From the IMG/VR virus record IMGVR_UViG_3300031555_004942, positions 53,110 to 117,109 of that record: 64,000 nt of DNA. The stretch is one strand, 5' to 3'. Source of the DNA: a virus (lineage: Duplodnaviria; Caudoviricetes). Shown piece by piece: positions 1 to 51,200 of this stretch. Position 1 is the first letter of the stretch. Each line of letters opens with the position of its first letter. Made by a program: the position numbers and the translations under genes. Under the pieces are notes generated by a model. It saw only the letters and a list, made by a program, of their open reading frames with translations. It was not told where the DNA came from and did no database searches.

Positions 1-96
1 GGACACAAGGGTTTGTATATAATTATTTAGAAGGATTAACTGAAAGTCATTATGTAAAAGTAAAATAAAATATAATAAGAAAGGAGTTGAGATAAA

Positions 97-423
97 ATGC
101 AAATAAGACAAAAATATATTATTTTTGACAAACCTACAAATACTCCTTTATCTTATGAAATAGATTTCACAAAATCTGATCTATTAAAAATTCAGGTTAG
201 TGGAGATGGAGAATGTGATATAAAGATTTATGGGAAGATACATCCTAAATCAGAGTATTCCCTAATGAGTATTATTAAAGATTTTGATTATAATTTTATT
301 AATACTATTAATTCAAAAGGTGTATATACAATATCTGCAACAGGATACGATAAACTTAAAATTGAAACAAATAATGCAGATAGCACTTTGACTTGTGTGG
401 CAAGTGAGGTGGTTGAAGTATGA
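97..423 (+). CDS. Hypothetical phage protein (108 aa)
   Basis: ORF with AAGGAG RBS; overlaps the next ORF by 4 nt (ATGA); no recognisable motif. Confidence 0.75.
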   Translation: MQIRQKYIIFDKPTNTPLSYEIDFTKSDLLKIQVSGDGECDIKIYGKIHPKSEYSLMSIIKDFDYNFINTINSKGVYTISATGYDKLKIETNNADSTLTCVASEVVEV

Positions 424-22818: not shown

Positions 22819-22856
22819 TTAAAAATTATTATAAAATATGATTGGCAGGTATTGTT

Positions 22857-24281
22857 ATGAGCAAAAAAAAAGAAAAAATAAAAATTAATTTTATAGGAGC
22901 TAACGCTGATCAGGTTACAGGTTCTTGTACTCATATTGTAATGAATAATAAACAAATTTTATTAGAATGTGGGTTAATGCAAGGAGGTAAAACTATATTA
23001 GAAGATTATAGAAATAATGTAAAAAAATTTAGTTTTAATGCCTCTCAGATTGATTATGTTTTTGTAGGGCATGCACATGCAGATCATTGTGCTATGATTC
23101 CTAGATTGATAAAAGAGGGATTTGAAGGTAAGATAATTGTTCCTAAAGGAAGTAGTTCAATAATTTATGAAATATGTAAAGATTGTGCTTTTATTATGTT
23201 TAAGGATTGTGAATCATTAAGAAAAAAATATAAAGATAAACAATTTTTACCTGCGTATACTGAAGAACATGTAAATTTAATGATGGACCATATATATGAA
23301 TATGAAATGGAAACTAATTATTGTTTAGACGATAATGTTTCTTTTACTTTTTACAATAGTCAACATATTGTATGTTCTGCTCAAATTATGCTTTGGTTAA
23401 CGCAAAACAATCATACAAAAAAAATTATATATACAAGTGATTTAGGTAATATTTCTGTAGAAAATAATTATGTTCAAGAAATTACAAAACTTCAAAAAGC
23501 AAATCTTTTGATTGGAGAAGCAACGTATTGTGAACATTCTAAACCACTTACACATAAACATAGAAAAAAAGATTTAGAAAAAATAAAATGTGTAATAGAC
23601 CAATGTGTAGAAAATAATTCGTCTTGTTTAATCCCAACTTTTTCTTTGCATAGAACACAAGAAATGATAACAGAAATATATAAAATATATAAAAACAATA
23701 ATGTAAATATTGATTTTATTATTGCTTCTCCTTTAGCAAATAAAATTTGTGATATTTTTTTACAGATTTTAAAAGGAGAACAATTAAAACTTTTTACAGA
23801 GGTTATGAACTGGAGTAAATTAAAAAGAGTAAGAGATTATGATAAAGTAAATGAGTTATTAAATGATAAAAAGCCACATGTATGGTTGGCTTCTTCAGGA
23901 TTTATGACTGCAGGATATTCTCGCAGTATTTGTTCTTATTTATTAGGTAATTCAAAAAATACAATTATTTTATCAGGATATGCTCCAGAGGGTTCTTTAG
24001 CTTATAAGATAAAAAATGGAACAACAAAAACGATTACTATAGATGATAAGGTTTGCAAAAATTTAGCAACTGCTGTAATTCTTAAAAGTTTTTCAAGTCA
24101 TATGCAATATTATGATTTATTAAAATATTATTCAGATAGTTTTGTTGAAAAAATTTGTATTGTTCATGCAGATAAAAAACATAAGATAGATTTTTGTAAA
24201 ACTTTACAAAGTGAAATAAATAATAAAAATAAAACGCAAAGAGTAGTATGTGTCACTAATGGTACATCTATTAATTTATAA
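22857..24281 (+). CDS. Metallo-beta-lactamase / beta-CASP ribonuclease (CPSF73/Ysh1-like)
   Basis: VTGSC; HAHADH; HIVCSA; YTSDLG; EATY; LIPTFSLHRTQE; ASSGFM..G; FSSH; IVH; ORF track gives an alternative TTG start at 22842. Confidence 0.9.
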   Translation: MSKKKEKIKINFIGANADQVTGSCTHIVMNNKQILLECGLMQGGKTILEDYRNNVKKFSFNASQIDYVFVGHAHADHCAMIPRLIKEGFEGKIIVPKGSSSIIYEICKDCAFIMFKDCESLRKKYKDKQFLPAYTEEHVNLMMDHIYEYEMETNYCLDDNVSFTFYNSQHIVCSAQIMLWLTQNNHTKKIIYTSDLGNISVENNYVQEITKLQKANLLIGEATYCEHSKPLTHKHRKKDLEKIKCVIDQCVENNSSCLIPTFSLHRTQEMITEIYKIYKNNNVNIDFIIASPLANKICDIFLQILKGEQLKLFTEVMNWSKLKRVRDYDKVNELLNDKKPHVWLASSGFMTAGYSRSICSYLLGNSKNTIILSGYAPEGSLAYKIKNGTTKTITIDDKVCKNLATAVILKSFSSHMQYYDLLKYYSDSFVEKICIVHADKKHKIDFCKTLQSEINNKNKTQRVVCVTNGTSINL

Positions 24282-25709: not shown

Positions 25710-26258
25710 ATGAATAAAACATCATTGGGAAAAAAATTTGAAAAAAATTTTGGAGATTCTGCGAAACAAGATGGTATTTTTACACATAGGTTAAAAGATA
25801 CTGATTTATCATATAATGGTAATTCTGTTTCAAGTTTTACTCCGTCAAATAAATGTGATTATTATTTTTTAGGTAATGTAAAAGATGGTAGAGGAACTTT
25901 ATTTGGTGTTGAATGTAAAAGTACTAAATATTCATCTATAGGAATTCAAACATCCCCAGAAGATCCAGAAAAAATGATAAAATATAAACAAATTCAAAGT
26001 TTGATTGAATTAAGTATGTATGAAGGTATAAAATCAGGTTTTGTATTAAATTTTAGAGATGATGATACAAATATGGAAGATACATATTATATTTCTATAG
26101 AAGATTTTTCTACGTTTTTAAATGAAACGCATAAAAAATCTATTAATAAAGCTGATTGTGAATTAAGAGGTCTATCTGTGGAATCAAAATTAAAAAGAAC
26201 AAACTATAAATATAATGTAAAAAAAATGTTAGAAGATATAATTAGAAAGGAGAGTTAA
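25710..26258 (+). CDS. recU: RecU-family Holliday junction resolvase
   Basis: GKKFE...CDY...VECKST...Q...L.......GFVLNF. Confidence 0.8.
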   Translation: MNKTSLGKKFEKNFGDSAKQDGIFTHRLKDTDLSYNGNSVSSFTPSNKCDYYFLGNVKDGRGTLFGVECKSTKYSSIGIQTSPEDPEKMIKYKQIQSLIELSMYEGIKSGFVLNFRDDDTNMEDTYYISIEDFSTFLNETHKKSINKADCELRGLSVESKLKRTNYKYNVKKMLEDIIRKES

Positions 26259-26259
26259 T

Positions 26260-27300
26260 ATGGCAAGAGAAACTTTTAAAAAACAGTTTACTACTCCTGA
26301 TATTATAAAACAGATTAATCCTAAAAATGTAAAATTAATGAATTTATATTTAAAAGATAAGAGTAGAAAATGTAGTGATGCTACAATGAAAGTGTATGCA
26401 TCTAATTTAAATATATTTTTTTGTTGGAATGTTATATATAATGATAATAAATATTATCCAGAAATTAAAAAAGTAGAATTAAGTGAATTTTTTGATTTTT
26501 TAGTTAATGAATTAAAAATACAAGGAAAAAGGTTTGCTCACTATCGTTCTGTTTTGAGTACCTTATCTGACATTGTAATAAAATATTATGATGATGATTA
26601 TCCTACTTTTAAAAATATTGTAAATACAATTATTGAACCCATTCCAAAAGATGCAGTAAGAAAAAAAACAATTTTAACAGATGAAGAAGTAGAACTTATT
26701 TTTGAAGTTTTGATTGCAAAGGATAGAATACAAGAAGCCTGTTGTTTTGCTCTTGCTGTATATTCTGGAATGAGAATTGCAGAGATTGAACAAATGAAAG
26801 TCGATATGATTGATAGAGAAAATAGTTTATCGTTTGGAGGAGTTTCTTTACAAACTACTGAAAAAATAAGAACAAAAGGATTTGGAAAACAAGGAAAGGT
26901 TATTTATAAACATATCATTAAAGATTTATTTTTACCTTATTTTGATAATTGGTTAGTAGAAAGAAATAGGATTATTGAAGAGTTAGGAATTGAAGACCAT
27001 GGATATCTTTTTATAAAAAGAAATGGTCAAAAAGCTACACAACATGTTATTCGTAATTGGGCAGATAAATGGAGTAAAATTGTAGGTAAAGATGTATATC
27101 TCCATTGTTTAAGACATAACTTAGTTACATATTTAACAAAATTAGGATTAGGTAGTGATTTTATTATTGCTTTTATGGGATGGTCCTCGGCTGATATGTA
27201 CAAAATCTATAATGACCTTGAGGATTCTGAACTTGATTGGAAAGATAGTAAAAAATTACAAGAAATTATCAATAAAAAATTATTAGAAGAAGATGAATGA
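26260..27300 (+). CDS. Tyrosine recombinase (XerC/D-like)
   Basis: N-terminal core-binding domain; catalytic R (SGMRIAE), K (TKG), HCLRH, MGWSS and Y (IYND). Confidence 0.9.
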   Translation: MARETFKKQFTTPDIIKQINPKNVKLMNLYLKDKSRKCSDATMKVYASNLNIFFCWNVIYNDNKYYPEIKKVELSEFFDFLVNELKIQGKRFAHYRSVLSTLSDIVIKYYDDDYPTFKNIVNTIIEPIPKDAVRKKTILTDEEVELIFEVLIAKDRIQEACCFALAVYSGMRIAEIEQMKVDMIDRENSLSFGGVSLQTTEKIRTKGFGKQGKVIYKHIIKDLFLPYFDNWLVERNRIIEELGIEDHGYLFIKRNGQKATQHVIRNWADKWSKIVGKDVYLHCLRHNLVTYLTKLGLGSDFIIAFMGWSSADMYKIYNDLEDSELDWKDSKKLQEIINKKLLEEDE

Positions 27301-30214: not shown

Positions 30215-33200
30215 ATGGATAAAGATATTAAAAAAAATGAAACAACTGGTTTCTGGGATACAAAAAAATGGAGAAATTTTCTTTCAGATATGCAAAGAAA
30301 TGCAGGTTCTTTAGGAATAAATAGTGAAGTAAGTGAATTGATGAAAAAAACTCTTTCAGATAATGCTTTTAAAGCAGATTTTAAAGGAGTTCAGAAACTT
30401 TTTGGGCAAATTCAAGATTTGCAAGGTGGGTTAGATGCTCTTAAAACAATAAAAAATAGTTCTACTAATTTATATAAAGATTTTGTACATAATCTTTATG
30501 GAACTACTTCAGGAAGTGATTATCTTAAGGAATATACATCTCAACAAATAAAACGATTAAATCAAGTAAAATCTATTGTGAGTGGTCAAGAAAAAGAATT
30601 GACATGGGCAACTAAAATGATAGAAAATGGAACTATTATTGCAGAGGGATATAATCTTGCAGGTAATAAAGTAAGACGTAGAGAATATACTCAAGGTAAA
30701 AGCAAACCTGTTTTTTCTAAAGGTGTTGATTATGATAGAAGTGGTAAAATTTCGGCTTCTTATTCTCCTTATAGATATAATGATGTTAATAGTAGGGGAG
30801 ATGTTGTATCAAGAGGGGGTATGTTGAAAACACATTATGATAAAAATGGAACTGTTGTAAATCAAGATATTGTAGATTATAGAACCTCTAAATCTATCAC
30901 TCAACCTGTATCTAAAACATATAGACCAAATCAAGTTCTTAAATCAACATATAAAGGAGTAGGTCCTACAAATAATGATATTTTTATTATGGGAAATCAG
31001 AGATATTCTAAGTTTGTATCAAATAGTCCTATTCAATTAGATAATCAAAAAGATAAATTTGGAAGATACAATGGTGCATTAGAAAGGTTGAGACAAGGAA
31101 TTGATGAATCAATTGCTAACATTGTAAATCAAGGAACACAAGCTATTGATAAAATGTCTGTTAGTACTGTAAAAGGAAGTAATTCAAGGAAGATAAGTAC
31201 ATCTTCTTTTAAAGGAATAGATCCTAAGAAAATGAATTATTTTGATTTTGAAACAATTGGTCAATTAGGTCTTGGCAATTTTATGCCTACTCAATTTTCT
31301 GTTAGACACCAAGATGGTAAAGTTGATAGTAAAGTTTTAAAAATGTCTCAAAAAGGACAGGAGTATATAAGTGGGATTTTAAAAGATTTAAAATCAGGAA
31401 ATTGGGGAAATTTGAATAATGATAAACTTAGGGATTTAACACATATGGCAGATTTCTCTGTAATTAACGGAAAGATTGCTACAAAACACGAAAATTTTTC
31501 TGGAATTCGTCCAGATCAAATTACTGGTAATTTATTAGCTAATATAGAATCTGGTTTTGAGATTTTAAAAAATGCTGAAAAATATACTAATGGTACTGCC
31601 GATGCAAAAAGTGCTATAGAAAATATGTTAAAATCAACTAAAGGGACTATGGTTGGACATAATATTAGATCTTTTGACAATGAAGTATTTAAGCAATTAG
31701 GTGTTGATTTTTCAGATTTTAAATTTTTAGATACTTTAGAAATGGCTAAAAAATATTATAATTATGGAGATATGAGACAACATATTAGTGGAGGAAAATC
31801 AGTACATAAACGATTGATGGGATTTAGTCAATCTCATCTTCAGGATTTCTTCAATATTGATATGAGTGATTTATTAAAACAAGGTATTAATCAACATACT
31901 GCAGAATATGATACGGAATTAAATAAAAGAATTGCTGAAGCAATGTTTAAAGAAATAAATTCAAATCAAGTAAAAAATCGCTATGTGGGAGGAAAAGTTG
32001 GTTCAGTAAAAGTTGGACAGGTTGGAACAGCAACTAAAGGGCATTTCAGACAACATGCATATGATTTTAAAACAGATGCAATGGGAAAAGTTTTAAGAAA
32101 AAGTGAAAATGAGTGGAATGATTTATTGATGAGAAGTGGTGGGCAATATGCCTATGAAGGAAAAACATCAATAACTGATACTAAAGGTGTGGCTCGTAAT
32201 TTTGCTAAATTCTTTGATTTAAATAGTGGTGAATCTGTTTATAAATATGTTGCTGATGATGTTGACCTTGGAAAATTTATGAGTGATATTTTTAATGGAC
32301 ATTTTTCAACAATAAAAGATACAACAACATCTGCAAAAGCTTCGATTTTTAGAGGAGATACAGGTTATGCTAATTTATCTGCATTAATGTCTGCATTACA
32401 AGGCAATTCTGTTTCTCAGAGACAACAATATAGAGCCAATATGCTTAAAGAAGCAGATGGTGGTAAATTTATTACAATGGCTCAACAAATCTATAAAGGT
32501 TTAGAGGGCAGTGGGTTATCAGATATTCAAAAAAGTTTAGCTTTAGAATTAATGGGTTCAAAAATGGGAATGTCTCAACAAAAAATGTTTTCTATGAATA
32601 ATATTAGAGATTTAATTTCTTTAAGTTCTGGAGGTACTGTTAATGGGACAGTTTCTGCTTTGAAAACATTTTTAGGAAAAAATAAACAGTTCTTTGCGAA
32701 TTCATTAGAGTATAGTAGTTTGTTTGAAGATATTGATATAGCATCAAGAGGTATGTCAGATTCAGCTATGGGAACGTCAGGAGATAATTTTTATGGAATT
32801 TATCAACGAATTGCTGAACAACTAAGAGGAAGTGATTTTGCAAAACAATATGAATCACAACTTAAATTTAATAAAGATGTGTATAAAAATGGATATGATA
32901 TTAATAGTATAGTAAAAAAATCAATTGAAGACGTAAATAAATTTGTTAGTAATACTGGAGAAGATGCTTTGGAAAGAATTTATTCAAGTTCATCCAGCGA
33001 AATAAAATCAGCTCTTGATGGAAAGTCATTAAATAAAAGATTGGGAAATCTACAAAAATTAGGTGTATTAAAAGATACGTCTATGGTTGCGACAAAAAGT
33101 ATTTCAGAACAATTATCAAAAAGTATAAAAGGGTTACAAGAAAGTGGTATTGGAACACGAATTAGTCTTTCTGGAGATGGTACTGGATTGAATTTAAGCT

Positions 33201-36200
33201 TATTCGATAGTGCTGATTCAAAAAGTATATCATTTAATTCAGAAGGAAAGATGATATTAGATCCTAATAGATCTGCTTCTGTGTATATTCCATTAGATAA
33301 AGGAAATGGAATATTAGATGATAATGGAATGTTAAAAACAAATATGATGACTACAACTTATGATGGAGAATCAGGTTTTAAATTAACAACATTACAAGAT
33401 AAAATGATTGAATCTATTACAAGAGTTTTAGATTCAGGTAGTATTAGAAAAAATATGTCGGAGGGTAAATTTTCTGCTATAAATAGTGCTTTATTTCATG
33501 CGAAACAAAATGCGTTGAATTTATCTCCATCGGCAGGTACTTATAAACAAGGTTCTATTTGGAATGACTATGAAGATTCTTTTAAAGTTGGGGCATCTCC
33601 TGAACAAATGGCAATAAGAACAAGTATGGTAAATTTAACAGATGGTATTGTTAATTTGTTAGATCAAAATTATGATATTACTCCAAACAATACAGAATCA
33701 TATAATTATAGTCAAGCTATTCAACATGTTATGGATTATGCAGCCTTATTATCAAAAGGAATTCCGAATATAAATGATATGATTTCAGGAGAAAACTCAC
33801 CATATTCATGGATGATAAAAAATGGTAAAGAAGGAGCTTTTGAAAAAACAACATCTCATTTACAAAAATTAGTATCTAATTTACCTATGAATTTAAGTGC
33901 AATAAAAGAAGCAGCTTATTTAAATCAAACTTATGGCTTATTAGGGACTGGAGGTTTTGCTCCAGGATTTGAATGGCATCCAGAAGACCAAAGAAATATT
34001 GCTCAATCACATAATAGACTTAAATTGAAAAAAGCAACAGGATATGCTAAAGAGGCTATGAAAAAAGATGTATTTACATCAGACGTTGCAAAAATTTTTG
34101 GTTTTACTCCTCAAGATACTGTTGAAGCAGGATTAGTTACAGAACAGCATGTTTATGAAGGATATAAAAAAATGTATGAAGCTCAAATGCGAGATGAGGG
34201 TAAAATTAAACCTGAAACAGATGCATGGAATAAAGAATTAAAAAGGAGAATGTCTTCATCTCCTATGTTGTCGGTAGAAAATGATAGTGGTATTATAGCT
34301 AAAGATTTTGCAGATAGTGCTTTTTATTCCATGGAAAAATCTATGACCGTAAATGAAGAAGATTTTTATAAAATTTTAAATGGTAAAACAATTCAAAATA
34401 TTGAAAAATCGGGGTTACATGTATTAGACAAAGGATATAATCTTAGTCAAATGTCTATTGGAAATAAAACTATTCATGATGGAGATATTTTAAAATCAGT
34501 AACAAATAATGGGGATGGCACATATTTCTTAAAAATGGAAGAAATATTGAATATGGGTAAAAATGCTCATTCAAAGGCAATTTCTGGATCTGGAAATAGA
34601 TTTACTGTAGGTTTGGCAAATAGTGATTTAATGAAGTATATAGCTGAAGCAGCAGGATTAAGTTCTGTTCCTACAATGTTTTTAAAGAAAAAGTTAGAGC
34701 CAAGTGAAGATGAAAATGGTAATAAAGTATATAAAAATGAGCTTAAACAAAAAGATATTGCAGGAGCATGGAATGAAAGACTTCAAAAAATATTTTCTGA
34801 TTATTTATCTCAGGGTGGAGATAATAATATACAGAGTTTATATAACAGTTTGCCAAAACAAATGCAAAAATATTTTTCTATATCTGATGGGCAATTAAAA
34901 GGTAGTAGTTATTTTGATGGGACTTCATGGAAAATAAAGGGTTCTAATGAGGAATTATTTGAGAATGAATCAGATATGAAGCATTTCTTTGATTTAAATC
35001 AAACAGGATTAATTGCACAAACAGCAAAAAATTTAGGTGTAACATATGACCCAAATATGATAAGAACTGCTGTTAATATGGCAAATGAGTATTCTTATTT
35101 TTCTGGATTTGGATATAATCCAGATGAGGCTGAATTTGATAGTAAACATAAAGTAACTATGAAAGAACAAGATGCTGTTCGTAGAAAAATAGGAGCATTA
35201 AAAACAAAAGATAATACGTTTGAAACATTTTCTAAACATATGGCTGATTATATTACTAAATCAGAGTTACAACTACAACCCTTACGACAAAAAGCTACGA
35301 GAATTGATAAAATAGTAAGCACAGCGGCTAATGCTAACGCAAGTGAAGCAAAAAAAGCTATTGCTTTAGGGGAACGTACTCTTAAAGTTGTTGATAGATC
35401 AATAAATAGTGAATTAGCTGATGATGAAATTAGTTTACATTCATTAGGAAATCATAGAGGAATTACAAAAGATGGTAAAATATCTGAAAATGCATGGAAA
35501 AATACTTCTGCAGGTATTTTTGCAGAAAGAGCTAAAAAATTAGGATGGGGAGAAGATTATCAGATTGTTTATGAAGGACAACCTGTACAAATTACGACAG
35601 GTGAAGGTCATGTAATGCAAGGAAGTACTATGGTTTTTGGCAATCATGGTTCAGAAATAAAAAAAGGAAAAGTTGCTCCTTCTTCTTTAGATTCGTCTGC
35701 GGATAGAGTTTGGAATGCTTTAAAAGCTATAAAGACAGGAACATATCAGGGAGATATCCCCGCTGATGAATATGTTGCAAATCTTTATAGTTCTTATTTA
35801 AAAGATACTTATGATATGACTCATAGTAAAGAGAGTCCTTTATTTCAAGAATTAAATTCTAAAAGATTAACAAATGCGACAGCAGGAAAAGCTGCAGGTA
35901 CGAACTATGTTCAAATGAGAGCAGATTTTGGGAATGCATATAGTAATGCAGTTATGGTAAACCCAGAGCATTTAAAAGAAATGCTTTCTATTGATAAAAA
36001 AAATGTGTCTAAAGAAGATTATAATGCATATAAACAAAACCTACAATGGATGTATGAAGATTTAGTCCCTCAAAATAATCGTATAAAAAATATGAATAGC
36101 GTATCTTCTTTAATTGATGGAATTGTTAATGCTGTGACAATTGAAAATTCAACATCTGGACCATTAACAAAAGGATTAGAATCAATGTTCCATCGTTTCC

Positions 36201-39200
36201 CATCAACTAATGGATTGGATGAGTATTTTGGACAATTATTTGTTTCTAAAGGATTACAAAAAGGAAACATATCTGTAGGAGCAGGTCTTGCGTTAAGAGA
36301 AAACTTAGACTTTGATGGTGATGTTCAATATGCCGCATTATTGGGATTAAATAATAAATTTAAAGATAAAAATGAATGGAATAAATTTAGAAAAGAAAAT
36401 ACTAAAATAAGAACATGGGATGAGAATATTTCAAAAAAACTACAAGCAAAAGTTCTTAGTGAAGCTAATGTAGAAAATAGTGATGTATATGATTCAGAAA
36501 ATGTTGTAAAAGCATTGCAACAATATAATGAAACAGTGTCAACTCCTGTATTTTCTAAAAAGAATTTTGGAAAAATAGGTGGATTATCTAACTTCTCTAC
36601 TGCTGTTAGAAATAAAATGAAAAATGCAGGTATTGATGAAACTTCAAGTTCTGCAACTATAGAGCAAAAAGCAAATGCAATAATGACACGTTCTGTATTT
36701 GAACTATTTGAACAAGATGCTATAAGTTCTAAAAAAGTTGCTCAACGTATGCTTTCAAAATCAGAAGGAAATGAAAAAGCACTTATTGATGATTTAGATA
36801 ATTTTTATAAAATGTTAAGTAGTATGGATTATTCATCAAAAGGGGCAAAATGGAGTTCTGTATTTGCAGAAGCAGAAAGATTAGGTATTTTTGGGAAAGA
36901 TGGAGTTTTTGATACCAGACAAGCTCATAATGCTGTTTCTACTATAGAAGAACTTGGTAGATATCATGGTTATGGTGGTTTAAAAGGTGGAGTTGCAGGT
37001 AGAGCCTTATTAGAAAAAGTATTTGGAAAAGGCACTGTTGGTAGTTTTTATGATGAAAAGGGGAATCTTTTATCTGGAGATGTATTAAAAACAGCAGGTG
37101 TTGTATCTCGTGATGCTTATTTGAAAGCAGTAACAGCTATTGATGAAAGTTTAGGAAAAGATTCTTTAAGTTCTGCGATATATGATGAAAAAAATGTTAT
37201 TGGTCGTGCTTCTCAAAAATCTTATGAAAAAGCTGTAAGAGAATATATGAAAACGTTCTCTAAAAACCATGGTATGGGAAAAATGACAAATAAGGACATT
37301 TATGCATCGGGAATTAATGGTACAACACTTATTGATAATTTATCGCAAGAGAGTGGACAAACAGTTATTCCTGAGGTTCAACAACAAGGAGGTCAAGCAG
37401 GACTTGCATTATCTCAGGATGCAGTTGCAATAATTGAAGCTATTACAAATGCATTAAATGGACAGACTGCAGCATGGAAAGAAAATGGAATGGCTGTAGG
37501 AAATGCTATAAAAAATACAAATGCAATGACTGTAGCTCAAAGAAAAAATGCAGAATTAATGAAAAATCCTGTTAATGCAAGAAAGGCAGGGTTAAATGTT
37601 CTTCCTGGTGAAAACATTATGGAAAATTATGATAATATTGTTCATTCTGCATTAAGTGGCTCAGGTCAATCTATGTTTACTGATGAACTTATGTTTAGAA
37701 ATATAAGAAAAGCAGAATTAGACCAAGAAACTCATAAATATTTTGTTGATGGTAAACAGCAAAATATTGATTTCTCATTATCTCAAGCAGGAATTTTAGG
37801 AAGAGAAAATAAAACTTTTACTGAATCTTTTGCGACTTCAGAAAGAAAACAGTTATTTAAACAATATTTAAATGGTGAAGATATAAAAATTAGAAATTCT
37901 TTATCTGATATGCCTACTGTTTATTCTAGTGCTAATGGCAATCAAATTAGAGATTTAAGAGATTTAGAAGATAAGGCAGGATATTATTTCCAAGATATCG
38001 CTGCAACTGAAAGAGGTAGAATATTAGGTGATGTTACTCATGATATGTTAGATCATTATTCTCAGTTGAGTAATACTCGACTTAAAAGTATGACTCCTGA
38101 TAGTTTTATTTCTCAATATTTCGCAGGAAATGTTGCAGGTACTAAACTTAATGATTTATCAAAAGAATGGAGTTTAGCTGGAGGAACAGGTTCTTTGTTA
38201 GAAAATCTTCAAGGAATTTCAGGAAATACTTTTAAGGCTATAAATGATCTTAGTATTGTAGGTATTGATAAATTATTTAAAGATGCAAGTAAAAATAATT
38301 TATTGTCTCAATCCGAACAATCTTTTGTGGGTGAAATATATGATCCAGTTACAGGAGCTTTAAAAACATTTGGTGGTACATTTGATGCTATTTTAAAAAA
38401 TATGGTAGTAGACTATAAAACTGCTAAAAATCCTGATGTAAATAAATTTGCTGTACAATTGGAAATGTTATTAAGGACTATTGAATCCTATGCAGGTTCT
38501 GGATTAAATGATAGTGCAGTGCAAGAATTATACTCGCAGATATCTAAAGCAGGTATTGCAATTCATAATACTCAAACAGGTAATACTTCTGCAATACAAT
38601 TAACAAGACCAAGTAATGCTGCTTTGGCAAAAACAATGAATTATATTCAATATAGTCAATCTTTGCAAGATATGTCTGAAATTAGAGATCCTAATTTTGT
38701 AGATCTTGTATGGACAAAAGGAGATCTTAGAAGATTTTCAAATAATAAATTACAAAATGCATATAGAAATATTAGTGAATTCTTATATCAAGGGTCTACA
38801 TCTGGTGGCACATCTGAAGAGAATTTTCAAAAATTTTTATCTGGTTTTGCAAAAGATGGATTAACTTTCAAAAAGAATAAAGGAACTTCGGAAAGTAATA
38901 AAGGAACTTCTTCTTGGTTTGTAGATGATAATGGACAACGTATGGTTATGAGCGTAGATTTTGCTAATGGTAGAGTGTCAAGTCCAAGTTCATTAAAAGT
39001 TAGAGAGCTTATTTCTGATGAAAAAGGAAAATATTTAAGTGATGAACAAACATACTCTCATTATTTAAATGAATATTTAAAAGCATATCAAAGATATAAT
39101 GATTTCAGTTTGTCAGATGAGGAACAAAGACACGCTACAGCTAATTTTAATAAAATGCGTGAAAAACTTTTCAACTTTGAACAACAAGGATTTTTAACAC

Positions 39201-42200
39201 CTGAAAAAATCAATGAATTAAGACAAGCTCATTTAGATAGTCCTGAAGCAGAAAAGATGTTGAAAGCAATAGGAGAACCTCCAAAAGAAGCATCTCAAAG
39301 GAATTATGTAAGTGCATATCAGAGATTATCAGAAGCTCAAAATAAAATAAGATATCAGGAAAGTTTACCTACAGCTTTAAGAGATTCAAAAGTTTATGAT
39401 ACAGAGATAATGAATGCTCAAAAAGCACAAGCTGATTTAGATAAAGCTCGTCTTGAATTGTATTCAAAAGAAGGTGGTGGAGTTAGAAGTGATGTAGAAG
39501 TACAACAATTGCAACAAAGATTGCAAGATTATGTTAATTTCCATCCTTCAATGTTAGGAAAAATAATTCCTCAAGAAGCATCTTATGAAGATATTACAAG
39601 ATTAGCAAATGATGATAGTAAAAGTGCAGGATATAATAAAATTTTATCTGACAGATTAGCAATAATAAAACAACTTGTTTCTGCACAAAATGAATTAAAT
39701 TCTCTTGTTAATAGTGGAGACAAAAAAGCTATTACTAATGCAACAGCAAAAAGAAATCAAGCACGAGCAGAACTTGACAATATAAATAAAATTATTGGTG
39801 AATTAAATCCTTATTTAATAGATGCAAATAAACAAATTGTTTCTGATACAATGCAAGAACAAGATAAAATATTATCAGGCGAATCAGCAAATCTTGAAAA
39901 AGGTACAAAAGAGTATGAGCAAAGAAAGCATATGGTTGAAGATTTTAAAAAATATAATAAAGAAATATTAGATTTGCAAGAAAAACAACATGCTATTCAA
40001 ACTAAAATGAAACAAGGAAAAGCAACAACTGATGATTATGCTCAACTTCAACATATACAAAAACAAATTTCTGATACTCAGGCAATTATGCCTACACTTG
40101 ATAAAGATGGTTTTATTTCTGATAAAACAGGAGCTAAGTTTAAAACAACTGAAGCTCAACAAGCTGATATTCATCATACATTCGCTCAACAAGAAAGAGA
40201 TTATAATAAGCGTATAGCTGAACAAACTATGCTTGCAAGTGGTAAAAAAGGGCTTGGAAATTATTTAAAGAATTTAGGCAAACAAACAATTGGATATTTT
40301 AGTATGTCGATGTCCTATAAAATTATAGGTATGATTACTCAAATCTTCTCTAGTATAATTCAGAAAACAAAAGAATTTAATAAAACAATGATTGATATTC
40401 AAATTGTTACGAGAAAATCATCTAATGAGGTTGGAGATTTAGTTAAAGAGTATAACGGATATGCTAAAGAATTAGGGGTAACAACACAGGCTGTAGCAAC
40501 TTCTGCAAACCAATTTTTACGTATGGGTTATAATGCTCAAGAAACTGCAAAGTTAATTGAAAGTTCAATGAAATTATCTAAATTGGGTATGATCGAAGCA
40601 GGTCAAGCGGCTGAATATCTTACATCTGCAATAAAAGGATATCAATTATCTGCTCAAGAATCTGAGAAAGTTGTTGATATGGCTACAACTCTTGATATGA
40701 GTTATGCAGTCGATGCAGGATATATTTTATCAGCAATGTCAAGAACAGCTACTTCTGCTAAATTAGCAAAAGTTGAAATGTCTGAATTACAATCAATGAT
40801 TGCAGTTATTGGTGAAACAACTCAGAAAGATGCATCTGTTGTTGGTGAGAGTTTAAAAACTGCATTTGCAAGATATGGTAATGTAAAAGCAGGTGTTGCA
40901 GCAAAAACTAATTTATCTGATTTAGATGAACAAAGTAAAGATGAATTAGAAGCTGTAAATGATATTGAAAGAGTATTAACTACATATAACATAGATGTTA
41001 GAGAATCCGATAATAAAACATGGAGAAGTTATTCTAACATAATGAAAGATATTAATGAGCAATGGGCAAAATATTCTGATTATGAAAAGAATGCGATTGC
41101 TACTGCTATGTTTGGTACAAGACAGAGAGAAAATGGATTAGTTGTTCTTGAAAAATATAATGAAGTATTAAAAGCAAATGAGAAGGCTATAAATTCTGAA
41201 GGAACAGCAAATAAAAAATATGAAACATATCTTACAGGTGTAGAAGCTGCTCAAAATAGATTTACTGCGACATGGGAAAAATTCATCAATAATATTAATG
41301 GTAGTGATGGATTAAAAGTATGGTATAATCTTTTAACACAGATTGTTGAAATGATGAATCATTGGAAATTAATCTTAGGAGTAATTGTTGCAATGAAAGC
41401 TCCACAGATCTTTACTGCCTTTGGTAAGTTTTCTAATTCTTTTGGTGGATTTTTTACTGGTGCAAAAAAGACATGGGGATCTGCAACTTCTGGTTTTAAA
41501 GAAAAAGGATGGTCTGGAGTTTGGCAAGGAACAAAACAAGCTTTTAAAGATAGTTGGGGCGACATTGAGACCGATGCTAAAAATAAATTGAGTTTAAAAG
41601 CTGAAGTTCATGAAGCTAATAACCTTTTAGCACAAATATTACAAACACTTCAAGGAAAAGATATTGATGGGGATAATGATTCAAATACTACACAATCTGC
41701 AGGTTCAAAATCTTCAACACAAAATAATTTAAATAATCAAAATGTTCCTATTTCATTATTAGGTAATGGTCAATCAAATCCAAGACCAAGTGGGGGAGTT
41801 AATATAATTCCATCAGACGGAAGTGTTATTCCAATGGGTGGAACTGTAAAAAATGTTCTTTCTTATGGAAATAATCCAATATTATTAGGAAATGGCTTTG
41901 TTCCTCAACCTGTAGGAAATGGTATTATGTCATTACCTCAAGGTAATATTATAACAGATCCATCATTAATGTTACCTCCTGCAATAAGTGGAGGTCCTGT
42001 AGGTAAAGCTATTTTACTACCAAAAACAGCAGGGGGAGTTAATGTAATTCCATCAGATGGAAGTGTTATTCCGATGGGTGGAACTGTTGGTAGTGTTATT
42101 GATAAAAAGAAAAAAACAACCAATAAAAAAGAAAAAGCAGAAGCAAGAGCTAAAAGAGAACAAGAAAAACAAAAAATTAAAGATGCACAAAAAAGAAATA

Positions 42201-45200
42201 AAAAAGCAGAAAATGCTCGTAAAGAATATAATAGAACAATAGATAAAGGTGGACCTTTTACAGAAAAAGATAGGGGATTTTTTAAAAACAAAAGAGAAAC
42301 AATTAAAAACATGCCACATACTTCTTTGTCTTCTACCTTAAGAAAAACAACTATTGATGCTGATATTGCAAGAGTAGAAGATAATATTGATTCTATGTTT
42401 ATTGGTAGTCATCATAAAAGACAACAAAGATATAATGAGTTATTTCATGCAAAACGATATAGTAAACGTAGTTTTAAACCAACAAAAATAAAAAATGTTC
42501 AGAGAAATGCTTTAATTCCAACAACAGGGATAGCTGTTAGTGAAAATACCAACATTCCTAACAAACAAGGATGGTTTAGTCAAAAATGGCATGGATTTAA
42601 AGACAGATTAAGAGAAGAAATTGCTTTTCGTGAAGCACGAGGAGAATACAGAGTCGGAAAATTAAGACAAAAAATAAATAATCGTTTTGGGCATAATAAA
42701 GGATTTACAGATATTCCATGGACTAATGATCCTTCATTAATGTTACCTCTTGGACAAAATACTAATAACATTCCTCAAAAACAGGGATGGTTAAAAAAAG
42801 GTTGGAATAAAACAAAATCCGCTATTTTAAAGCCATATAAATTTTTAGACAATAAAGTAAAAAATAGTCAGGCGGCTGCAAATATGGCATCTACCATAGG
42901 AACTATGACTGGTTTTATTGGTGGAGGAATGCTTGGTAATGCTATTAGTGAAGAACATGGTGGAACTATTGGATCATTATTAGGAATTACAAATATGGCA
43001 ATAACTGCTATTAATCCTTTAATTGGAGCTATAACTGGTGTAGTTTCTACTGGATTAGGTATTATTGTAAATCAAATAAAAAAACATAATGAGAAACAAA
43101 TAAAGTTGGCTCAAGAGCATTATGAAAAATTACAGAATAAAGTATCAACTTTAGAAAATTCAACTAAGGATTTTAATAGATATGATTTGTTATCACGTGG
43201 AGTTAATGAATTTGGAAATAATGTTTCTTTGTCTGATTCAGAGTATGAAGAATTTTTAAAACTTGGAAACGATTTAGGAGAATCTTTCCCTGAATTGATT
43301 ACTCGAATTGATGAAACAGGAAATTCATTTCTTGGCTTTGATGGCAAGATTGGCAATGTAGTTCAGGGACTTGAAGAATTCACTAAACAATTAAAAAAAT
43401 CTGAAGCAATTGCGGGATTAAATAAAGATAATCTTGAGGGTGAATATAGTTCTTATGTATCAAGGATTAGAGATATAAAAGATAATATTCAGAGTAAAAA
43501 AGAAAGTAGTAAGTTTTTATCAGATTCAGAAATTCAAAGATTAAATAAAGAGGGAAAATTTTATATTAATAAAACAGAAATGTCTGATGAAGATATAAAA
43601 ACTTTAAAAGAATTAAAAAAAGATAAAAATTTAAATATAAAAAAAGAAGAGTTGAGTAATTCTCTAAATAATGGGTTTTGGTCAAGTGTTTGGGCAGATA
43701 TTAAGTATGAGTGGGGACTTGGAGAAGATCCATATTCAGATGTTTATACATTTAAAAAAGAAGATCTTGAAAAAAATAAAGATTTAGAAAGATTGTATTA
43801 TAAATATTCTGGAGATATAAATACTTCTGAACAATCTATAAAACAACAAGAAGCAGAAATAAAAAGAATAAGTGGACAATATACCTCAGATATATTAAAC
43901 AACTTAATAAATTCTGGACAAGTAAATCTTGATAATGATACAAAATCTATGGTATCTACTTTACTTAATAATTTATTCCCTGATATAGATGAGGCTACTA
44001 AAGTTTGGAATAGCAGAGAGGGAGAAGCAGTATCTATAAAAGATAACATATTGGATATTGCCAACCTTATTAGTTCTGGAGATAGTGCAATTTATTTAAA
44101 ACAAATGTCTTCAATAAATACTTCTGATAATTTACAAAATGCCAATAATTCATTTAATGAATCTTCTAATAATTTAAAAAATGAATTATTTGTGAAAAAT
44201 TCAGCATTTGTGAAAGCGTTAGAAAATCAAGGCTATGATATTGATTATAAGAAACAAACAGTTACTAAAGATAACAAGACTCAAACTTTTGATGATTATA
44301 TTTTAGATTTAACTCCTCAGGGTAAATCACTACATAATCTTAATATTCAATTAGATAGTAAAACTAAAGATGGTAAAAATCTTTATGATATTGATGGATT
44401 ATCCAGAGATGTTTTACAGACAGAATTTTCTCAAGATGAATTAAGAGAAATATTAGGAATGAGTGAATTAGAAGTTAAAAATATAATAGGAACTTCAACA
44501 GGGGATGAAGCTATAGATAAATTAAGAACACGAGCAATCATTAATACTCAAAATTCTATGGATGATGTGTCTGGTTCATTTGTTACTGCTTTCAGGAATC
44601 TTGCGGATAAAGATGGCAAAAAAATATTTGATGATTTAACAGAATCTGAAATTGCTCAATATGCACAAGATTATTTTGATTATCCTGAAGAAACTTTAAA
44701 AAGATTAAATGAACAAGGAGTAACGCTTAATGATTCTATGCTTAAATACCTTGAAAGATTAAAAGAATATGCGGATCAATTAGATATGTCTGTGGATGAT
44801 TTTGTTAAGAATGCAAAATATGTATCTCATTTAGATTTAAATGGTTTTAGTACAAAAAAAGCATCAGATATTAAAACTGAAATAAATACTTTAATGGAAG
44901 TTGCTGATTCTATTCGTCAAGGAAATGAAATTACTGGAGAGCAGATGGATGCTTTAATGAGTTCTAATCCAGAAATATTAAATGAAGCAATGAAAGATCC
45001 CAATTATTTAAATAATCCTACACAAGCATATTTATCAGCAATTGAGAAACAATTATCGTTTTTTGAAGGAGCTTCACATAATGTATCTATAGGAGGATAT
45101 TATGCGAAGGATAGTACAGGATTTTGGGATACATATATTGACCCTAACAATGATTTATCTTGGATAAATTCTTTGGGTGGGGCAATGAATGCTTCTAAAT

Positions 45201-48200
45201 ATTTCATAGGAGAAGATTTTAATCTTAATACTAATTATAAGAGCGAAGATTATGATAAAAAATTTACTGACAAAAGTGGATTACAATCTGGAATTCAAAA
45301 GATAAAAACAGACCAAGGATTTACAACAGATGCACAGGCTTATGATTATTTAGTGACTACGTTTGGTACATCTGAACAAAAGCAAAGGTATAATAAATTA
45401 AGTGGTACAGATAAAGAAAATGAAGCAAAAAAAATTGCTGATGAATTGGCTACACAATATTATGATTGGTTAGAGAATATAACTGATTTAAGTCCTGAAT
45501 TAAAAAAAATTTTTGAAAAAATCGGAGAAAGTATAAATATTTCTAATGAGGTAGAAAATGCAGAAAGAGATGCATCTAATTATTATGGACTTCAAGATTT
45601 GAGACAAAAAATGTCAAGACAAAGAGAAGATTATAAAGAACAATTAAAAGATTTAGAGGTTCAAAAAAGATTAAATGAATTAGAGAACTATCTACAAAAA
45701 CGTAATCTTTTAATTGATAGATATAATAATGAGATTGCCAATGCAGATTGGGCATTAGATATAATTGCTCCTTCTGATTATTTTGGTAAGATTGATATAA
45801 CTGCTAATAAGTTAGAAGCTACTTTGAATAAATATAATGAGCTAAAAGCTCAATTTAAAGAGTTATCTGAGATGACACCTCAATCTCCAGAAGAAGCTCA
45901 AAAAATAGCTGATACTATGAAATCTATTACTGATCAAATGCCAGAGCTTACAAAAGAATTAGCAAAAGCAGAGGAGACTCTTAAAAATATTGCTTTAGAT
46001 TCTATAAGTGAAAGTATAAATAATATTACGAGTTCATTTGATCAACAACGAAAAGTATTAAATAATTCTGTTGAAATGTCTTTAAGCTTTACAGGAGTAA
46101 GTTCTAGTTTGGATTTATTAGGATTGGATTATACTCCAATGATAGAAAATAAAACTGAAGTAGAAAAAAAACAAGATGAATATAAAACATTATTATCTAT
46201 GCAAGAAGATTTTCAGGATGAATCTTTAGAGTCTCAAAATACTTATTTAGATTTATTAAAAACAGATCAAGAAGAAGAGTATTTTAAAAATAAAAAGAGA
46301 CTTAGAGAAGATGATATAGCTTCAATGAGAAGTTATTATAATGAATTATGGGCTTATGCGAAATTAGGTAAAGAATTAACTGAAGACGAAATGAAATCAG
46401 TAGTGTCTTATTTTAAAAATGCTGAGGGCATTGATTTCTTACCTGATTTTTATCAAACTGGTAATGGCAAGTGGAGATATTCACAATCAGGTAAAAGTGG
46501 AGAATCAGATGATGAGGATACTCCAGAAATAGATAATAATGCGATTGGGCAAATAACGAAAAAGATCTCTAATAAAGAAACATTAACAAAAGATGAAAAA
46601 GAACAATATGTTAATCATTTAAAATCATTATATGGGGATAAAAAACAAGAAAAATTTTTTATAGAAAACGAAGATGGATATTCTTTTAATCAGGAGGAAT
46701 TTCGTAAATCATTACTTCAGCCTGATGGTTCAATATTAATGCCTACATCATCTGCTAATATACCATCACAAGCTGATATAACTAAAACAGTAGAGCAAAT
46801 GATAAAAACAGGTGTTGAAAATGTTGATGTAAATAGCACAGAAATAAAAACGAAATATATAGCCCCAAAAATTGGGCAATTACTTGGAGCGTTTTTAGAT
46901 GTTTGGAATGAAGACAAAAATAAATTAGAATATAAACTTACAAAACCATCTCTTTTAGGATTTTCTGATGGGAAATTATCAGCCGATGGAGACAATAAAG
47001 GATGGGGTAGTCAAGGTTTAATTCAAGACATGAAAGATGCTATGAAAGAAGTAATGCATGGATTAAATGAAGATAGTTCTAATTGGAAATTAAATGCTCC
47101 AACTCCTGATAAAACGTCATGGGAAACATTTGGACAAACTATCGGGGAATATATTTCCGATGGCATTGATAAAGGTGTAGAAATAGGATTAGCTCGTCAA
47201 TCAGAAGATTCTTTACCTACTTCTGAGGGTTCTGGTTCTGCAGGAAGTATGTCTTCAACAGCTACATCTTCAGGTTCAATTCCAACTGGTGCGGCAATGT
47301 ATTTTCATTCTCCTTATGACAAAATTAATGGACATGTAGGTATTTATGGTGGAGATGGATATATATATCATTTAGGTAAAGGAGTAAAAAAAAACACTCT
47401 TCAAGAATTAGAATCAAAAGGATATGTATACAGAGGATGGGGTTGGAGTGGTGGAAAAGACCAATCTAACCAAGGATATAAAATTGCTGAAGAAGCTAAA
47501 AAAATGAGTAGTTATGGATATGCTTCTGGAAATTGTCAAAAATGGGTGTCTAAAGTATATCAACAAGCATTAGGTGGAAATAGATATCAATATACAAGAC
47601 CAAGTGCAAAATTAGCAGGAGATGAGTGGATTATTGGTAATGCAAGAGATGGAGAAAATTCTTCACTTGTGGGAATTAATCAGAATACAGCAATTGGAAG
47701 ATTAATTGCTAAAAAAGCTCAAGAACATAATTTGGGATATGGTATTTCATTAGATGGTTTAGGTTTTCTTTCCGCTAAATATGAGGGTGGAAAAGTAGGT
47801 GCTATTGCTACAGTAAAAGGAGATCATGGTGGAACATCTTATGGTATTCCTATGTTTGCAACAAATACAGGTTCTGCTGATAATTTTGTACGTTGGTTAA
47901 AAAATCAATATCCTGACCTTGGTAAATTTTTTGGTTATCATAAAGCAGGAACTCCTGGATTTAATCAAGCATGGAAGAATGTATCTGATTTATATTCTCA
48001 GATATTTGGACAAGCTCAAATACAATATGGAATGGATACCATAGTAGACCCTCAATATAATAAAATCCTTAAAAAATATGGATTAGACATGAAGAGAAGT
48101 AGAGCTTTATATGAAGTGTTAATTTCAATGGCATATCAATATAATAATTTATCTACAGGATTATTAAATGGGTATAAGTCAAATATGACAGATCGTGAAA

Positions 48201-51200
48201 TTATAGAATTAATTTATAATAATAAAGCAAATAATGTTAGTAGTAATTTCAAAAGTAGTTCTAAATCGGTACAAAGAGGAGTTGCTAATCGTATCAAAAA
48301 TGAAAAAATAGATGCTTTAACATTAGCTGCTTATTCTATAGGTACTTCATATCATAAAGGAGGTAAGGCTCTTTTAGGAGATGAGAATCTTTTAAAAGGA
48401 ATTAATCAACCAAGTCCTGAAACATTAATTTATCCAAATGGAAAAGTAGAAATTATCGGAGAAGATGGACCAGTTATTAAAAATATTCCTATTGGCACTC
48501 AAGTATTAACGACATCTCAAACAAAGGCTTTATTTAGGAATATACCTAATTATGCAGAAGGTACAGAAGTTGGCAAAGCATATTTTACAAGTGGTAATTA
48601 TAATATTAGAAAAGGTCCTAATGGTGAAATTATTACAACTATTCCTAAAGATAAATCATATGGATTCTATTTAATGGATGAAAATGGGGAATGGAAAAAA
48701 GGTACATTCTATTATGGAAATGAAGAAAATAGAAAAATGATGGTTGGTTGGATTCATCAAAATGGATTAAAAGAATATAAAGATGATTCTAATAATACTC
48801 CTATAGAAGCACATAATGTATATAATGATGGAGAAATAGGCAAAGAATATTCAGCATCAACCATATCATCTCAAGAAAATAATGATAATAAAGAGACTTC
48901 GAAAAAGAAACTTACTAAAGAAGAAATTCAAGCAATTGAGAAAAAAGCTCAAGACTTAATTGATACATTATCAATACCATTTGAATCAAAAGCTAAGGAA
49001 ATTCAGATAAATAAATTAAATAAAGATTTATATAAAAAACCTATAATTGAGTTATATGAATATATGGATGATACTACTACTGATTATGTAGAACGTATAC
49101 AAAATAAAGCTATGTTGGCAATGTATAAAAAAGAAGGAGACTTAGATACTTTATATCAAGAAGCAAATTTATATAAAGATCAACAACAAGCTTTATTAGA
49201 AGAATATTATGCAGCTATAGAACGTGGTGAAAGTACAGAATTTTTAAGCAAACTCAAAGATTCAATTTTGGAATTAGATGATGCTCTTAAGAGCGTAGAT
49301 TCTGAAATCCAATCATGGGTTGATGAAATGATTTCTTATGCTACTCAAGCATTGGAAGCCTTTAGATCTAAGATTAATCATGAACAAGAAATGTTAGATT
49401 TTGATTATAACTTAGGAGTTATTGGTAAAAAGACTGATGAAAACTATTATAAGGTAAGGTCTGAAAATAGAGAAGAATTAAAAAGACAATCAGAAAAATA
49501 TATTGATTCTGTTGTTAATACTATTGTTAGACAAGCATTAATTGAGGGAGCTTCTGTTGAAGCTGCATATAATAAAGCTTATAATAGTGAAGAATATAAG
49601 ACTGCCATAAAAGAACATTATCAACTCTTTGAGGCTGAAAAACAAGATAACGAAGATAAATTAGCAAGTCAACGAGAAGAAATAAGAAATAGAGAAACTC
49701 TATTAGATTTATCAAGAGAAGAACGTTGGAATAATCTTGATAATATTAATATCTATTATGGGGAAAAAGAAGAAGCTATAGATAATGAAATAATAGCTTT
49801 AAAAGAAGCATTAAAGTGGGAAAATCTTTCTCATGAAGAATATGTACAAAAAACTATGGAAATAGCAGATCTTGAAAAGAAAAAAGCAGATAATATAAAA
49901 GCAAGATTAGAAGCTATGCAAGAATTCTATAGTAGACAATATGATTCTATGACGTATATGGTTAATGAATATACCGATGCTCTTAATGATGAAAAAGAAG
50001 CTATTTCTAAGACTTATGATGAAGAAATCAGAAAATTACAAACTGTTAATGAGCAAAAAGAACGTGGCATAAAACTAACCGAATTACAAACTGCTTTAGA
50101 TAATGCTAAAAAAGAAAAGAAACGTATATATAGAGCAGGTGTTGGTTTTGTTTATGAAGAAAACAGAGAAGAAATAAACAAAGCAGAAAAAGAATTAGAA
50201 GATTTCTATAGTCAAGATCGTATTGATAGCATGAATGAAGCTAAAGAGTTAGAATTAAAAGCACTTGATGAAAGGATTGAAGGTTGGAATAAATATCTTG
50301 AAGCAATTGAAAAAGTATATAAAACTGCTGAAAGACGTGACCATATGAAAGTACTTGAAGGCTTATATGGAGTTGAAGGTTGGGAAGGTATTTGGAAAAT
50401 TTTAAATGATGATTCAAATGAATTCTTAATAAATAAAGAAGCAGGTCAAGACATTTATTATGGTCAAAACACCAATATGTTAGAAAATTATATAGGTGTA
50501 TCTTCTGAAATTTATAAAAAAATGGATGAAGGTGTACAACTTTTAAAAGATATAAGTGAATATGAAACATCATCTGTAAAATTACAAGGAGTTCCTAATT
50601 GGAGAGATTATGCTCATGTTATAAGTGATTTTAATGCAACTGCATCTGATTCTACTTTAATTCAACAGTTAAATGAAGAATATGGTTGGAATTTAACTCC
50701 TCAAGATTTAAAAAATATGAGTGACCAGAAATATAATGATTTATTTGCTGAAATAACTCAGTTATTTGAATCTAAAGGTCCTGAAGAGGCAATGAAATCA
50801 TTAAAATATGTTTTAGAAACAGGATGGATAGATGGAGATTCACCTTTGGGTACGCTTACTTATGGTACATATCAACAAGCATATAATATTGGTAAAGATA
50901 TATTGTTAAAAAAAGGTTCTCCTTTATATAACACCTTTAACCAACCAACAAACCTTGATTTAAACAAATTAGGTTTATCTTATGGTGTGTATGTTCATGA
51001 TGGATTCTCTAATAATCTTATCAAAGATGGTAGAGTTAATAAAGATTCGATAGATTATAAAAAATTAAAAGAAGGTCATTTTTCTGATGAAGACATATAT
51101 AATTTTGCTTTTTCAGACATGATAAAGCAAAAAGCTAAAGAAGCTATCGAAACAGATTTAGATATAAATGGTGTTATTTTACCACAATTTAAAGATGGTA

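Follow-up and report, generated by a model that had tools for sequence, protein, structure and literature searches.

Virion RNA polymerases (RNAPs) answer how phage transcription begins before any phage gene is expressed, and the one tape-measure-fused virion RNAP studied so far (2024) comes without a nuclease. The locus described here raises the question of what an exonuclease would do when it is built, together with a putative RNAP, into the tape-measure protein of a tailed phage. It is located in a stretch of 64,000 nucleotides (nt), hereafter referred to as the window, which covers positions 53,110 to 117,109 of the IMG/VR record IMGVR_UViG_3300031555_004942 (Caudoviricetes). The record, belonging to an uncultured phage from a metagenome, is 117 kb long, with an estimated completeness of ~67%, a G+C content of ~28% and all the large genes on the plus strand, where all the features of the window given below are also found. 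One uninterrupted open reading frame (ORF) of 7,175 amino acids (aa), designated as P0001 (nt 30215–51742, + strand), codes for a giant tape-measure polyprotein, colinear with homologues of 6,706–7,448 aa. A first-pass annotation had recognised, at nt 31232–31950 (aa 340–579 of P0001), an intact DEDDh exonuclease placed N-terminal to a virion RNAP, a context regarded as unusual for DnaQ-like domains.

The exonuclease domain of P0001

When 1.84 billion representatives were searched exhaustively with HMMER, 12 true homologues were retrieved, with identities of 25–43% and the motifs kept. Four of them (P0003, P0004, P0005 and P0008) are giant proteins in the size range given above, and the remaining ones look cut by contig ends; two further homologues, P0019 and P0020, came from a word-indexed search. 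The domain covers about aa 339–585 of P0001 (nt 31229–31969, + strand), as delimited by the AlphaFold2 (AF2) model; its identity is supported by Foldseek and VIA-align structural comparison, the match with PHROG 192 and hhalign. Its ExoI motif, D344-x-E346 (in FDFETIG; nt 31244–31252), is invariant in 14/14 sequences. In the ExoII motif, H482-N483-x4-D488 (GHNIRSFD; nt 31658–31678), H482 and N483 are conserved in 13/13 sequences and D488 in 13/14, the sole exception being the truncated fragment P0009. The ExoIII motif, H561-x4-D566 (HTAEYD; nt 31895–31912), whose histidine is the defining mark of the DEDDh subclass, is found in all the 11 sequences reaching it. The five catalytic residues named by the first-pass annotation (D344, E346, D488, H561 and D566) are thus all present where it had placed them, and they are unchanged in every complete homologue, despite the low identity elsewhere. 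Of the 281 columns in the trimmed alignment of 14 sequences, only 23 are at least 90% conserved, and those of all five catalytic residues belong to this set.

AF2 modelling from the 14-sequence alignment gave a DEDDh fold of the RNase H-like type (predicted local distance difference test, pLDDT, 85.9; predicted template modelling score, pTM, 0.81); from the single sequence the pLDDT was only 36.9. The top Foldseek matches in the PDB were all DEDDh exonucleases with probability 1.00, namely a TREX1 homologue, the PolC exonuclease domain, ExoI, the Cas2-DnaQ domain, TREX2, RNase T, oligoribonuclease (ORN) and epsilon. By VIA-align too, the best PDB matches were all DEDD(h) exonucleases (Z 13.7–11.3 over 150–170 residues, root-mean-square deviation 2.4–3.4 Å), with alignments spanning nearly the whole reference domains (ExoX 1–155 of 166, epsilon 7–180). 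The highest of these matches were DNA exonucleases, i.e., 9qrn (a DNA polymerase entry, residues 418–595), ExoX, epsilon, Cas2-DnaQ, ExoI and DinG, which exceed RNase T, ORN and 3'hExo by 1–2 Z units; the RNA-specific DEDDh enzymes scored 12.5 (3'hExo), 11.7 (RNase T) and 11.6 (ORN). Cap18, an exonuclease associated with the CBASS defence system, and TREX1-type enzymes were also among the structural matches, and the Exuperantia EXO-like domain was among those of Foldseek. When predicted viral structures were compared, the best two matches were long proteins or fragments of 1,257 and 1,009 residues, one of which is named YprB RNase H-like, followed by phage DnaQ/DEDDh proteins.

The correspondence with known enzymes could be followed residue by residue by means of hhalign, the reference being the aligned sequences of five E. 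coli enzymes (DnaQ, RNase T, ExoX, Orn and ExoI) from annotated loci of strain K-12. GHNIRxFD was placed on epsilon H98-N99-D103 and HTAEYD on H162/D167 (E 4.4e-5, probability 69%), and a second sub-alignment placed FDFETIG on epsilon D12/E14, so that D344, E346, D488, H561 and D566 match D12, E14, D103, H162 and D167, respectively. A PDB search with the family profile aligned the ExoII motif of P0001 with that of 2p1j, the PolC exonuclease domain (E 0.3). No match for the domain was found in the PDB with phmmer. Among phage protein families, the isolated domain matched, with its residues 451–584, the family PHROG 192, named 'DNA polymerase exonuclease subunit' (37.2 bits, E 4.3e-9), a partial match restricted to ExoII–ExoIII (profile positions 167–276 of 397), and PHROG 403, of the same name (E 2e-4), a family matched by 4/9 members of ours. 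This homology emerged with the isolated 321-aa domain (nt 31112–32074), whereas a 2,500-aa piece (nt 30215–37714) gave nothing on the domain against the PHROGs at E ≤ 0.001; giant proteins should therefore be scanned in domain-sized pieces. A protein-language-model atlas pointed, as a lead only, to phage DnaQ-like clusters (0.89). Fold prediction, profile comparison and conservation agree in indicating that the domain is a divergent but complete DnaQ-like DEDDh exonuclease. Neither of the two outcomes that would have contradicted the first-pass annotation, a model lacking the RNase H-like DEDD fold and loss of the catalytic residues in homologues, was observed. A remnant of a DNA polymerase was considered as a candidate and rejected, nothing polymerase-like being found downstream of the domain in Pfam and PHROG scans.

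A family-specific insertion of ~100 aa (aa ~375–477; nt 31337–31645) is predicted between beta3 and the ExoII strand; in the AF2 secondary structure it consists of four helices plus one beta-hairpin, and the model has another hairpin in the interval from ExoII to ExoIII. In agreement with the insertion, ExoX is aligned by VIA-align on 151 residues of a 244-residue span (20..263). Two residues of the insertion, R406 (nt 31430–31432; 13/14) and H425 (nt 31487–31489; 14/14), are conserved like the catalytic ones and may serve for substrate binding or for contact with the polymerase.

Conservation along the protein was evaluated by BLAST against the other four giants. The N-terminal leader (aa 1–338; nt 30215–31228) is unconserved, with no match to any of them and no match in Pfam. 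ExoI starts between aa 93 and 476 in the homologues and, since the preceding leader is of variable length (92 to 475 aa), the exonuclease is the first conserved element of the protein. The high-scoring segment pairs continue from the exonuclease to aa ~1300 in all the giants. A conserved stretch following the domain, with consensus G..G.A...R.....FK.D in the alignment (aa ~600–640; nt 32012–32134), opens a conserved block that extends over aa 586–1250. Expressed as bits per residue, similarity is 0.38–0.60 in the exonuclease, 0.17–0.33 at aa 586–1250, 0.11 in the RNAP beta-like part and 0.25–0.39 in the beta-prime-like part described below, and it is almost absent at aa 2301–3300. The exonuclease is therefore the best-conserved segment in the N-terminal 3,300 aa.

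Pairing with an RNAP signature, domain order and genomic context

The five giants (P0001, P0003, P0004, P0005 and P0008) are colinear along their length. In five out of five, the exonuclease is followed, 1,690–1,870 aa after ExoI, by an RxP...NxDxDGD signature and then by the tape-measure core; all of them also share membrane segments and, at the C-terminus, wall hydrolases. The co-occurrence of exonuclease and RNAP signature, proposed as a check by the first-pass annotation, is thus found in every full-length homologue. In P0001 the RNAP beta-prime-like signature, R1994-F-P ... N-L-D2032-F-D-G-D2036 (aa 1994–2036; nt 36194–36322), lies downstream of the exonuclease, in the order that had been claimed, here on a motif basis. 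Across the giants it takes the form hR(F/Y)PSxxGxD ... NxDxDGD, with P0008 reading DFDAD, and the distance from RxP to DxDGD is 38 aa. Beta-like motifs (EWHPEDQRNIAQ, ENDSGII and K..SGSGNRFT; aa 1252–1465, nt 33968–34609) are recognisable at the motif level in P0001 and only partly conserved in the giants; the first of them is separated from the nuclease by ~650 aa. A PDB profile search of aa 1201–2700 did not find anything, and a language-model comparison of the region gave a weak lead (0.77) to the RNA-dependent RNA polymerase family PF05183. An alignment with P0002 and P0006 was misaligned and left out. Because of the motifs, of their spacing and of the precedent of gp96 from the Thermus phage P23-45 (see below), this part of P0001 appears, by motif, to be a two-barrel RNAP.

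Downstream of this region, the stretch MVVDYKTAK (aa ~2730–2738; nt 38402–38428) resembles a D...(D/E)xK motif; around it, aa 2301–3300 are nearly unconserved among the giants, the only BLAST match being one of 145 aa to P0005, unlike the exonuclease. The tape-measure core (Pfam PhageMin_Tail, PF10145, E 2.4e-25; 11 PHROG tape-measure families) occupies aa 3416–3634 (nt 40460–41116). It is followed by two hydrophobic segments, of membrane type at aa 3719–3737 (nt 41369–41425) and a second one at aa 4266–4286 (nt 43010–43072), which a Kyte–Doolittle scan gave as the only strongly hydrophobic segments of P0001; those of the other giants are at similar positions. A cell-wall hydrolase (VgrG3-like C-terminal lysozyme domain, PF21277, E 1.2e-33) is found towards the C-terminus (aa 5849–6031; nt 47759–48307).

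As for the other homologues, the short ones (P0007, P0011, P0020 and others), several of which end mid-domain, look like contig-end fragments judging from their sequences, and no evidence for a stand-alone form of the exonuclease was obtained among those recovered. Five further candidates from the search of representatives (P0014–P0018) were discarded as repetitive, low-complexity false matches. P0019, an alanine-rich 4,382-aa protein from a Logan assembly, belongs to another lineage. It carries a compact DEDDh domain of the same type in mid-protein (residues ~1557–1701), without the ~100-aa insertion, which matches the family hidden Markov model (HMM) over ExoII–ExoIII (42.3 bits, conditional E 1.2e-14), PHROG 192 (E 3.3e-10) and, weakly, Pfam RNase_H_2; the DxDxD motif was found nowhere in its 4,382 aa.

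No match was obtained by tblastn against 50,697 phage genomes with the exonuclease, the RNAP-motif region, the aa 300–2300 module or P0006, and a pattern scan of 185,579 prokaryote species genomes returned no prophage copy. The same type of scan on IMG/VR gave one further contig, L007, which shares the upstream gene order and ends within the ORF. Bacillus phage 0305phi8-36 gave no match with PF00929 or with the family profile, and the DxDGD pattern matches inspected in it lie outside any tail giant.

On the 5' side of P0001 the window contains genes for a head maturation protease, a Holliday-junction resolvase, an integrase and an endolysin. The resolvase and the tyrosine integrase (nt 25710–27300, +) lie between head and tail genes, an odd site for an integration module, and the same pair is present in contig L007 (867–2467) upstream of the giant ORF. 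Directly 5' of the head maturation protease, within the structural block, a 479-aa metallo-beta-lactamase/beta-CASP nuclease is encoded (nt 22842–24281, +; PF10996, E 1.5e-18, with a weak RMMBL match). A 1,045-aa protein (nt 693–3830, +) combines an Mtd_N domain at its N-terminus (major tropism determinant; E 6e-10) with a carbohydrate-binding module; it probably serves as a receptor-binding fibre, and a diversity-generating retroelement may act on it. The 1,874-aa ORF right after the giant gene (nt 51824–57448, +) had no PHROG match at E ≤ 0.001.

Proposed role of the exonuclease and alternatives

We favour, with a probability of roughly 0.75, an account in which an active exonuclease is ejected beside a virion RNAP and acts at genome entry, preferably on DNA. 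That the domain is an active exonuclease delivered together with the RNAP is, judging from its sequence and modelled structure, very probable; DNA ends as its substrate are a more tentative choice, with less than even chances. According to the favoured account, a metal-dependent exonuclease would be the first conserved domain of an exonuclease-plus-two-barrel-RNAP block of ~2,000 aa, N-terminal in the tape-measure polyprotein; between this block and the wall hydrolases near the C-terminus lie the hydrophobic segments (aa ~3720–4290). On infection the protein would exit through the tail; its C-terminal enzymes would open the wall, the hydrophobic part would sit in the membrane and contribute to a channel, and the exonuclease–RNAP end would face the cytoplasm, at the entry point of the genome end. 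This model of ejection and topology is inferred from what is known of tape-measure proteins and from gp96 (PMC10770324). Once there, the exonuclease would take nucleotides off free 3' ends beside the RNAP. Preferably these would be DNA: the genome would be trimmed at its 3' end as it comes in, or other DNA ends would be trimmed at the point of entry, either to allow loading of the fused polymerase or to spare the end from attack or sensing. DNA 3' ends are favoured because the only sequence families matched are phage DNA-polymerase exonuclease subunits, and because the top structural neighbours are DNA exonucleases.

Several observations weigh against this account. The structural comparison is a weak guide to the substrate, the Z margin between DNA and RNA exonucleases being small and the DEDDh fold being silent on sugar specificity. 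A folded 28-kDa domain together with a polymerase may be too much for the tail tube to hold. The isolated domain had no match in Pfam even at E ≤ 10, Pfam RNase_T (PF00929; cut-off 24 bits) returned nothing when run on all six frames of the complete record (117 kb), and NCBIfam did not recognise the domain. The RNase_T search, suggested by the first-pass annotation as a check, was thus negative because the domain has diverged too far to be recognised by it and, as the PF00929 cut-off was not reached, we file it as a divergent member of the superfamily and not as a PF00929 member. Finally, P0019 carries a related DEDDh domain in a protein devoid of DxDxD, and coupling with an RNAP is therefore not obligatory for the wider domain family.

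The main rival explanation is that the exonuclease serves the fused RNAP on RNA, either by trimming the 3' ends of nascent or backtracked transcripts (proofreading, restart) or by processing transcript 3' ends, in function like the coronavirus nsp14 exonuclease (ExoN) beside its polymerase. The strict colinear pairing with the RNAP signature in 5/5 full-length homologues would be accounted for in this way, and so would the insertion with R406 and H425, which is present in the RNAP-bearing giants and absent in the DxDxD-less P0019; moreover, RNA-specific DEDDh enzymes match the model nearly as well as the DNA ones. However, two-barrel RNAPs use their own active site to cleave RNA, and to our knowledge no DNA-dependent RNAP has a separate proofreading exonuclease. 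If the distance of ~650 aa between the nuclease and the first RNAP-like motif, and the annotation of the nearest sequence families as DNA-polymerase exonuclease subunits, are also considered, service on RNA seems unlikely. A further reading, in our opinion decidedly doubtful, sees in the DEDDh domain a 3'-5' exonuclease dedicated to the DNA-dependent two-barrel RNAP as its partner and acting in transcript proofreading or rescue, or resecting the genome end to give a promoter-naive polymerase a single-stranded template; if true, this would be a class of mechanism, for the start of transcription or for its fidelity, so far unknown among DNA-dependent RNAPs, and one recurring in several phage lineages.

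The second rival is an injected counter-defence or host-takeover nuclease, working as an RNAP-independent module of a 'polyvalent' ejected protein on host or competitor DNA or RNA ends, or on defence-related linear oligonucleotides, guides or multicopy single-stranded DNA (msDNA). Cyclic signalling nucleotides, on the contrary, have no 3' end for an exonuclease and count against it. P0019, with its related DEDDh domain in a 4,382-aa protein lacking the RNAP motif, and the presence of Cap18 and TREX1-type enzymes among the structural matches are in accordance with such a function, but the fixed position and the top conservation beside the RNAP suggest a core and not an accessory one. That phages inject large multidomain proteins equipped with conflict enzymes is established (PMC5512222; PMC7824862), although, searched by term, the polyvalent-protein survey (PMC5512222) gave neither a DnaQ-type exonuclease nor a tape measure. 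On balance, a counter-defence module is rather improbable. A nuclease fold kept for binding or scaffolding only, as in the Exuperantia EXO-like domain that appears among the fold matches, or a role in virion assembly and not after ejection, is very improbable indeed: pseudo-nucleases typically lose catalytic residues, and the five of P0001 are invariant across homologues otherwise 25–43% identical.

With regard to the favoured account of an ejected exonuclease, an intact enzyme that is the most strongly conserved part of the nucleic-acid block suggests a second enzymatic step at genome entry, for which the preparation of DNA ends, RNA editing and the blunting of host sensing are candidates. 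Standard annotation (Pfam, NCBIfam and whole-protein PHROG scans) overlooks an exonuclease inside giant tail proteins. The domain is compact (~250 aa), and its expression and assay should be easy.

Comparison with known systems

With the DnaQ-like DEDDh enzymes (epsilon, ExoX, ExoI, PolC exonuclease, Cas2-DnaQ) the domain of P0001 shares the RNase H-like fold (Z 12.8–13.7, 150–170 residues) and the ExoI, ExoII and ExoIII motifs, the latter residue for residue with epsilon. It differs from epsilon and ExoX in the ~100 extra residues with the (nearly) invariant R406 and H425, and from DnaQ-like replication and repair enzymes in being built into the N-terminal region of a tail protein of 7,175 aa. 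The direct HMM match with PHROG 192 and PHROG 403 involves ExoII–ExoIII, i.e., the C-terminal half only, and members of these families are annotated as replication subunits, a name that reflects annotation and not a tested function, and not as parts of virion proteins.

The closest context is that of gp96 of phage P23-45, a tape-measure-fused virion two-barrel RNAP, crystallographically proven, with its RNAP core at aa 327–1124, which is present in the virion and transcribes the pre-early genes (Chaban et al. 2024, PMC10770324). Like P0001, gp96 is a giant tape-measure protein with an N-terminal DFDGD RNAP signature and 38 aa from RxP to DxDGD; the two proteins have no detectable sequence similarity. 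No DEDDh match was found in the 5,002 residues of gp96 with the family HMM at maximum sensitivity, no Hx4D is present in its aa 1–340, and no nuclease is mentioned for it in PMC10770324. Together with the lack of matches in the phage genomes searched, and with a full-text literature search which found no paper on a tape measure containing an exonuclease or on the fusion of such an enzyme with a two-barrel or virion RNAP, this bears out the claim that the context is unusual.

More distant parallels are offered by the viral ExoN of coronavirus nsp14 and of the arenavirus nucleoprotein (NP), which are DEDDh-superfamily exonucleases working with, or beside, a viral RNA-synthesising enzyme (PMC7968707). 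They belong to eukaryotic RNA viruses, have an RNA substrate and are not fused to a two-barrel DNA-dependent RNAP, and represent a functional analogy only. The polyvalent injected proteins of phages and conjugative elements are very large multi-enzyme polypeptides presumed to enter the host with the DNA (Iyer et al. 2017, PMC5512222). In a term search of that survey, the passages returned on RNA polymerase concern the host RNAP or the N4 virion RNAP, the terms 'tape measure' and 'DnaQ' are absent, and 'exonuclease' occurs once, in the title of a reference. Compared with these systems, the exonuclease of P0001 represents a new architecture within a familiar enzyme family, and its setting, a putative injected RNAP fused to a tape measure, has a single experimental precedent, which lacks the domain.

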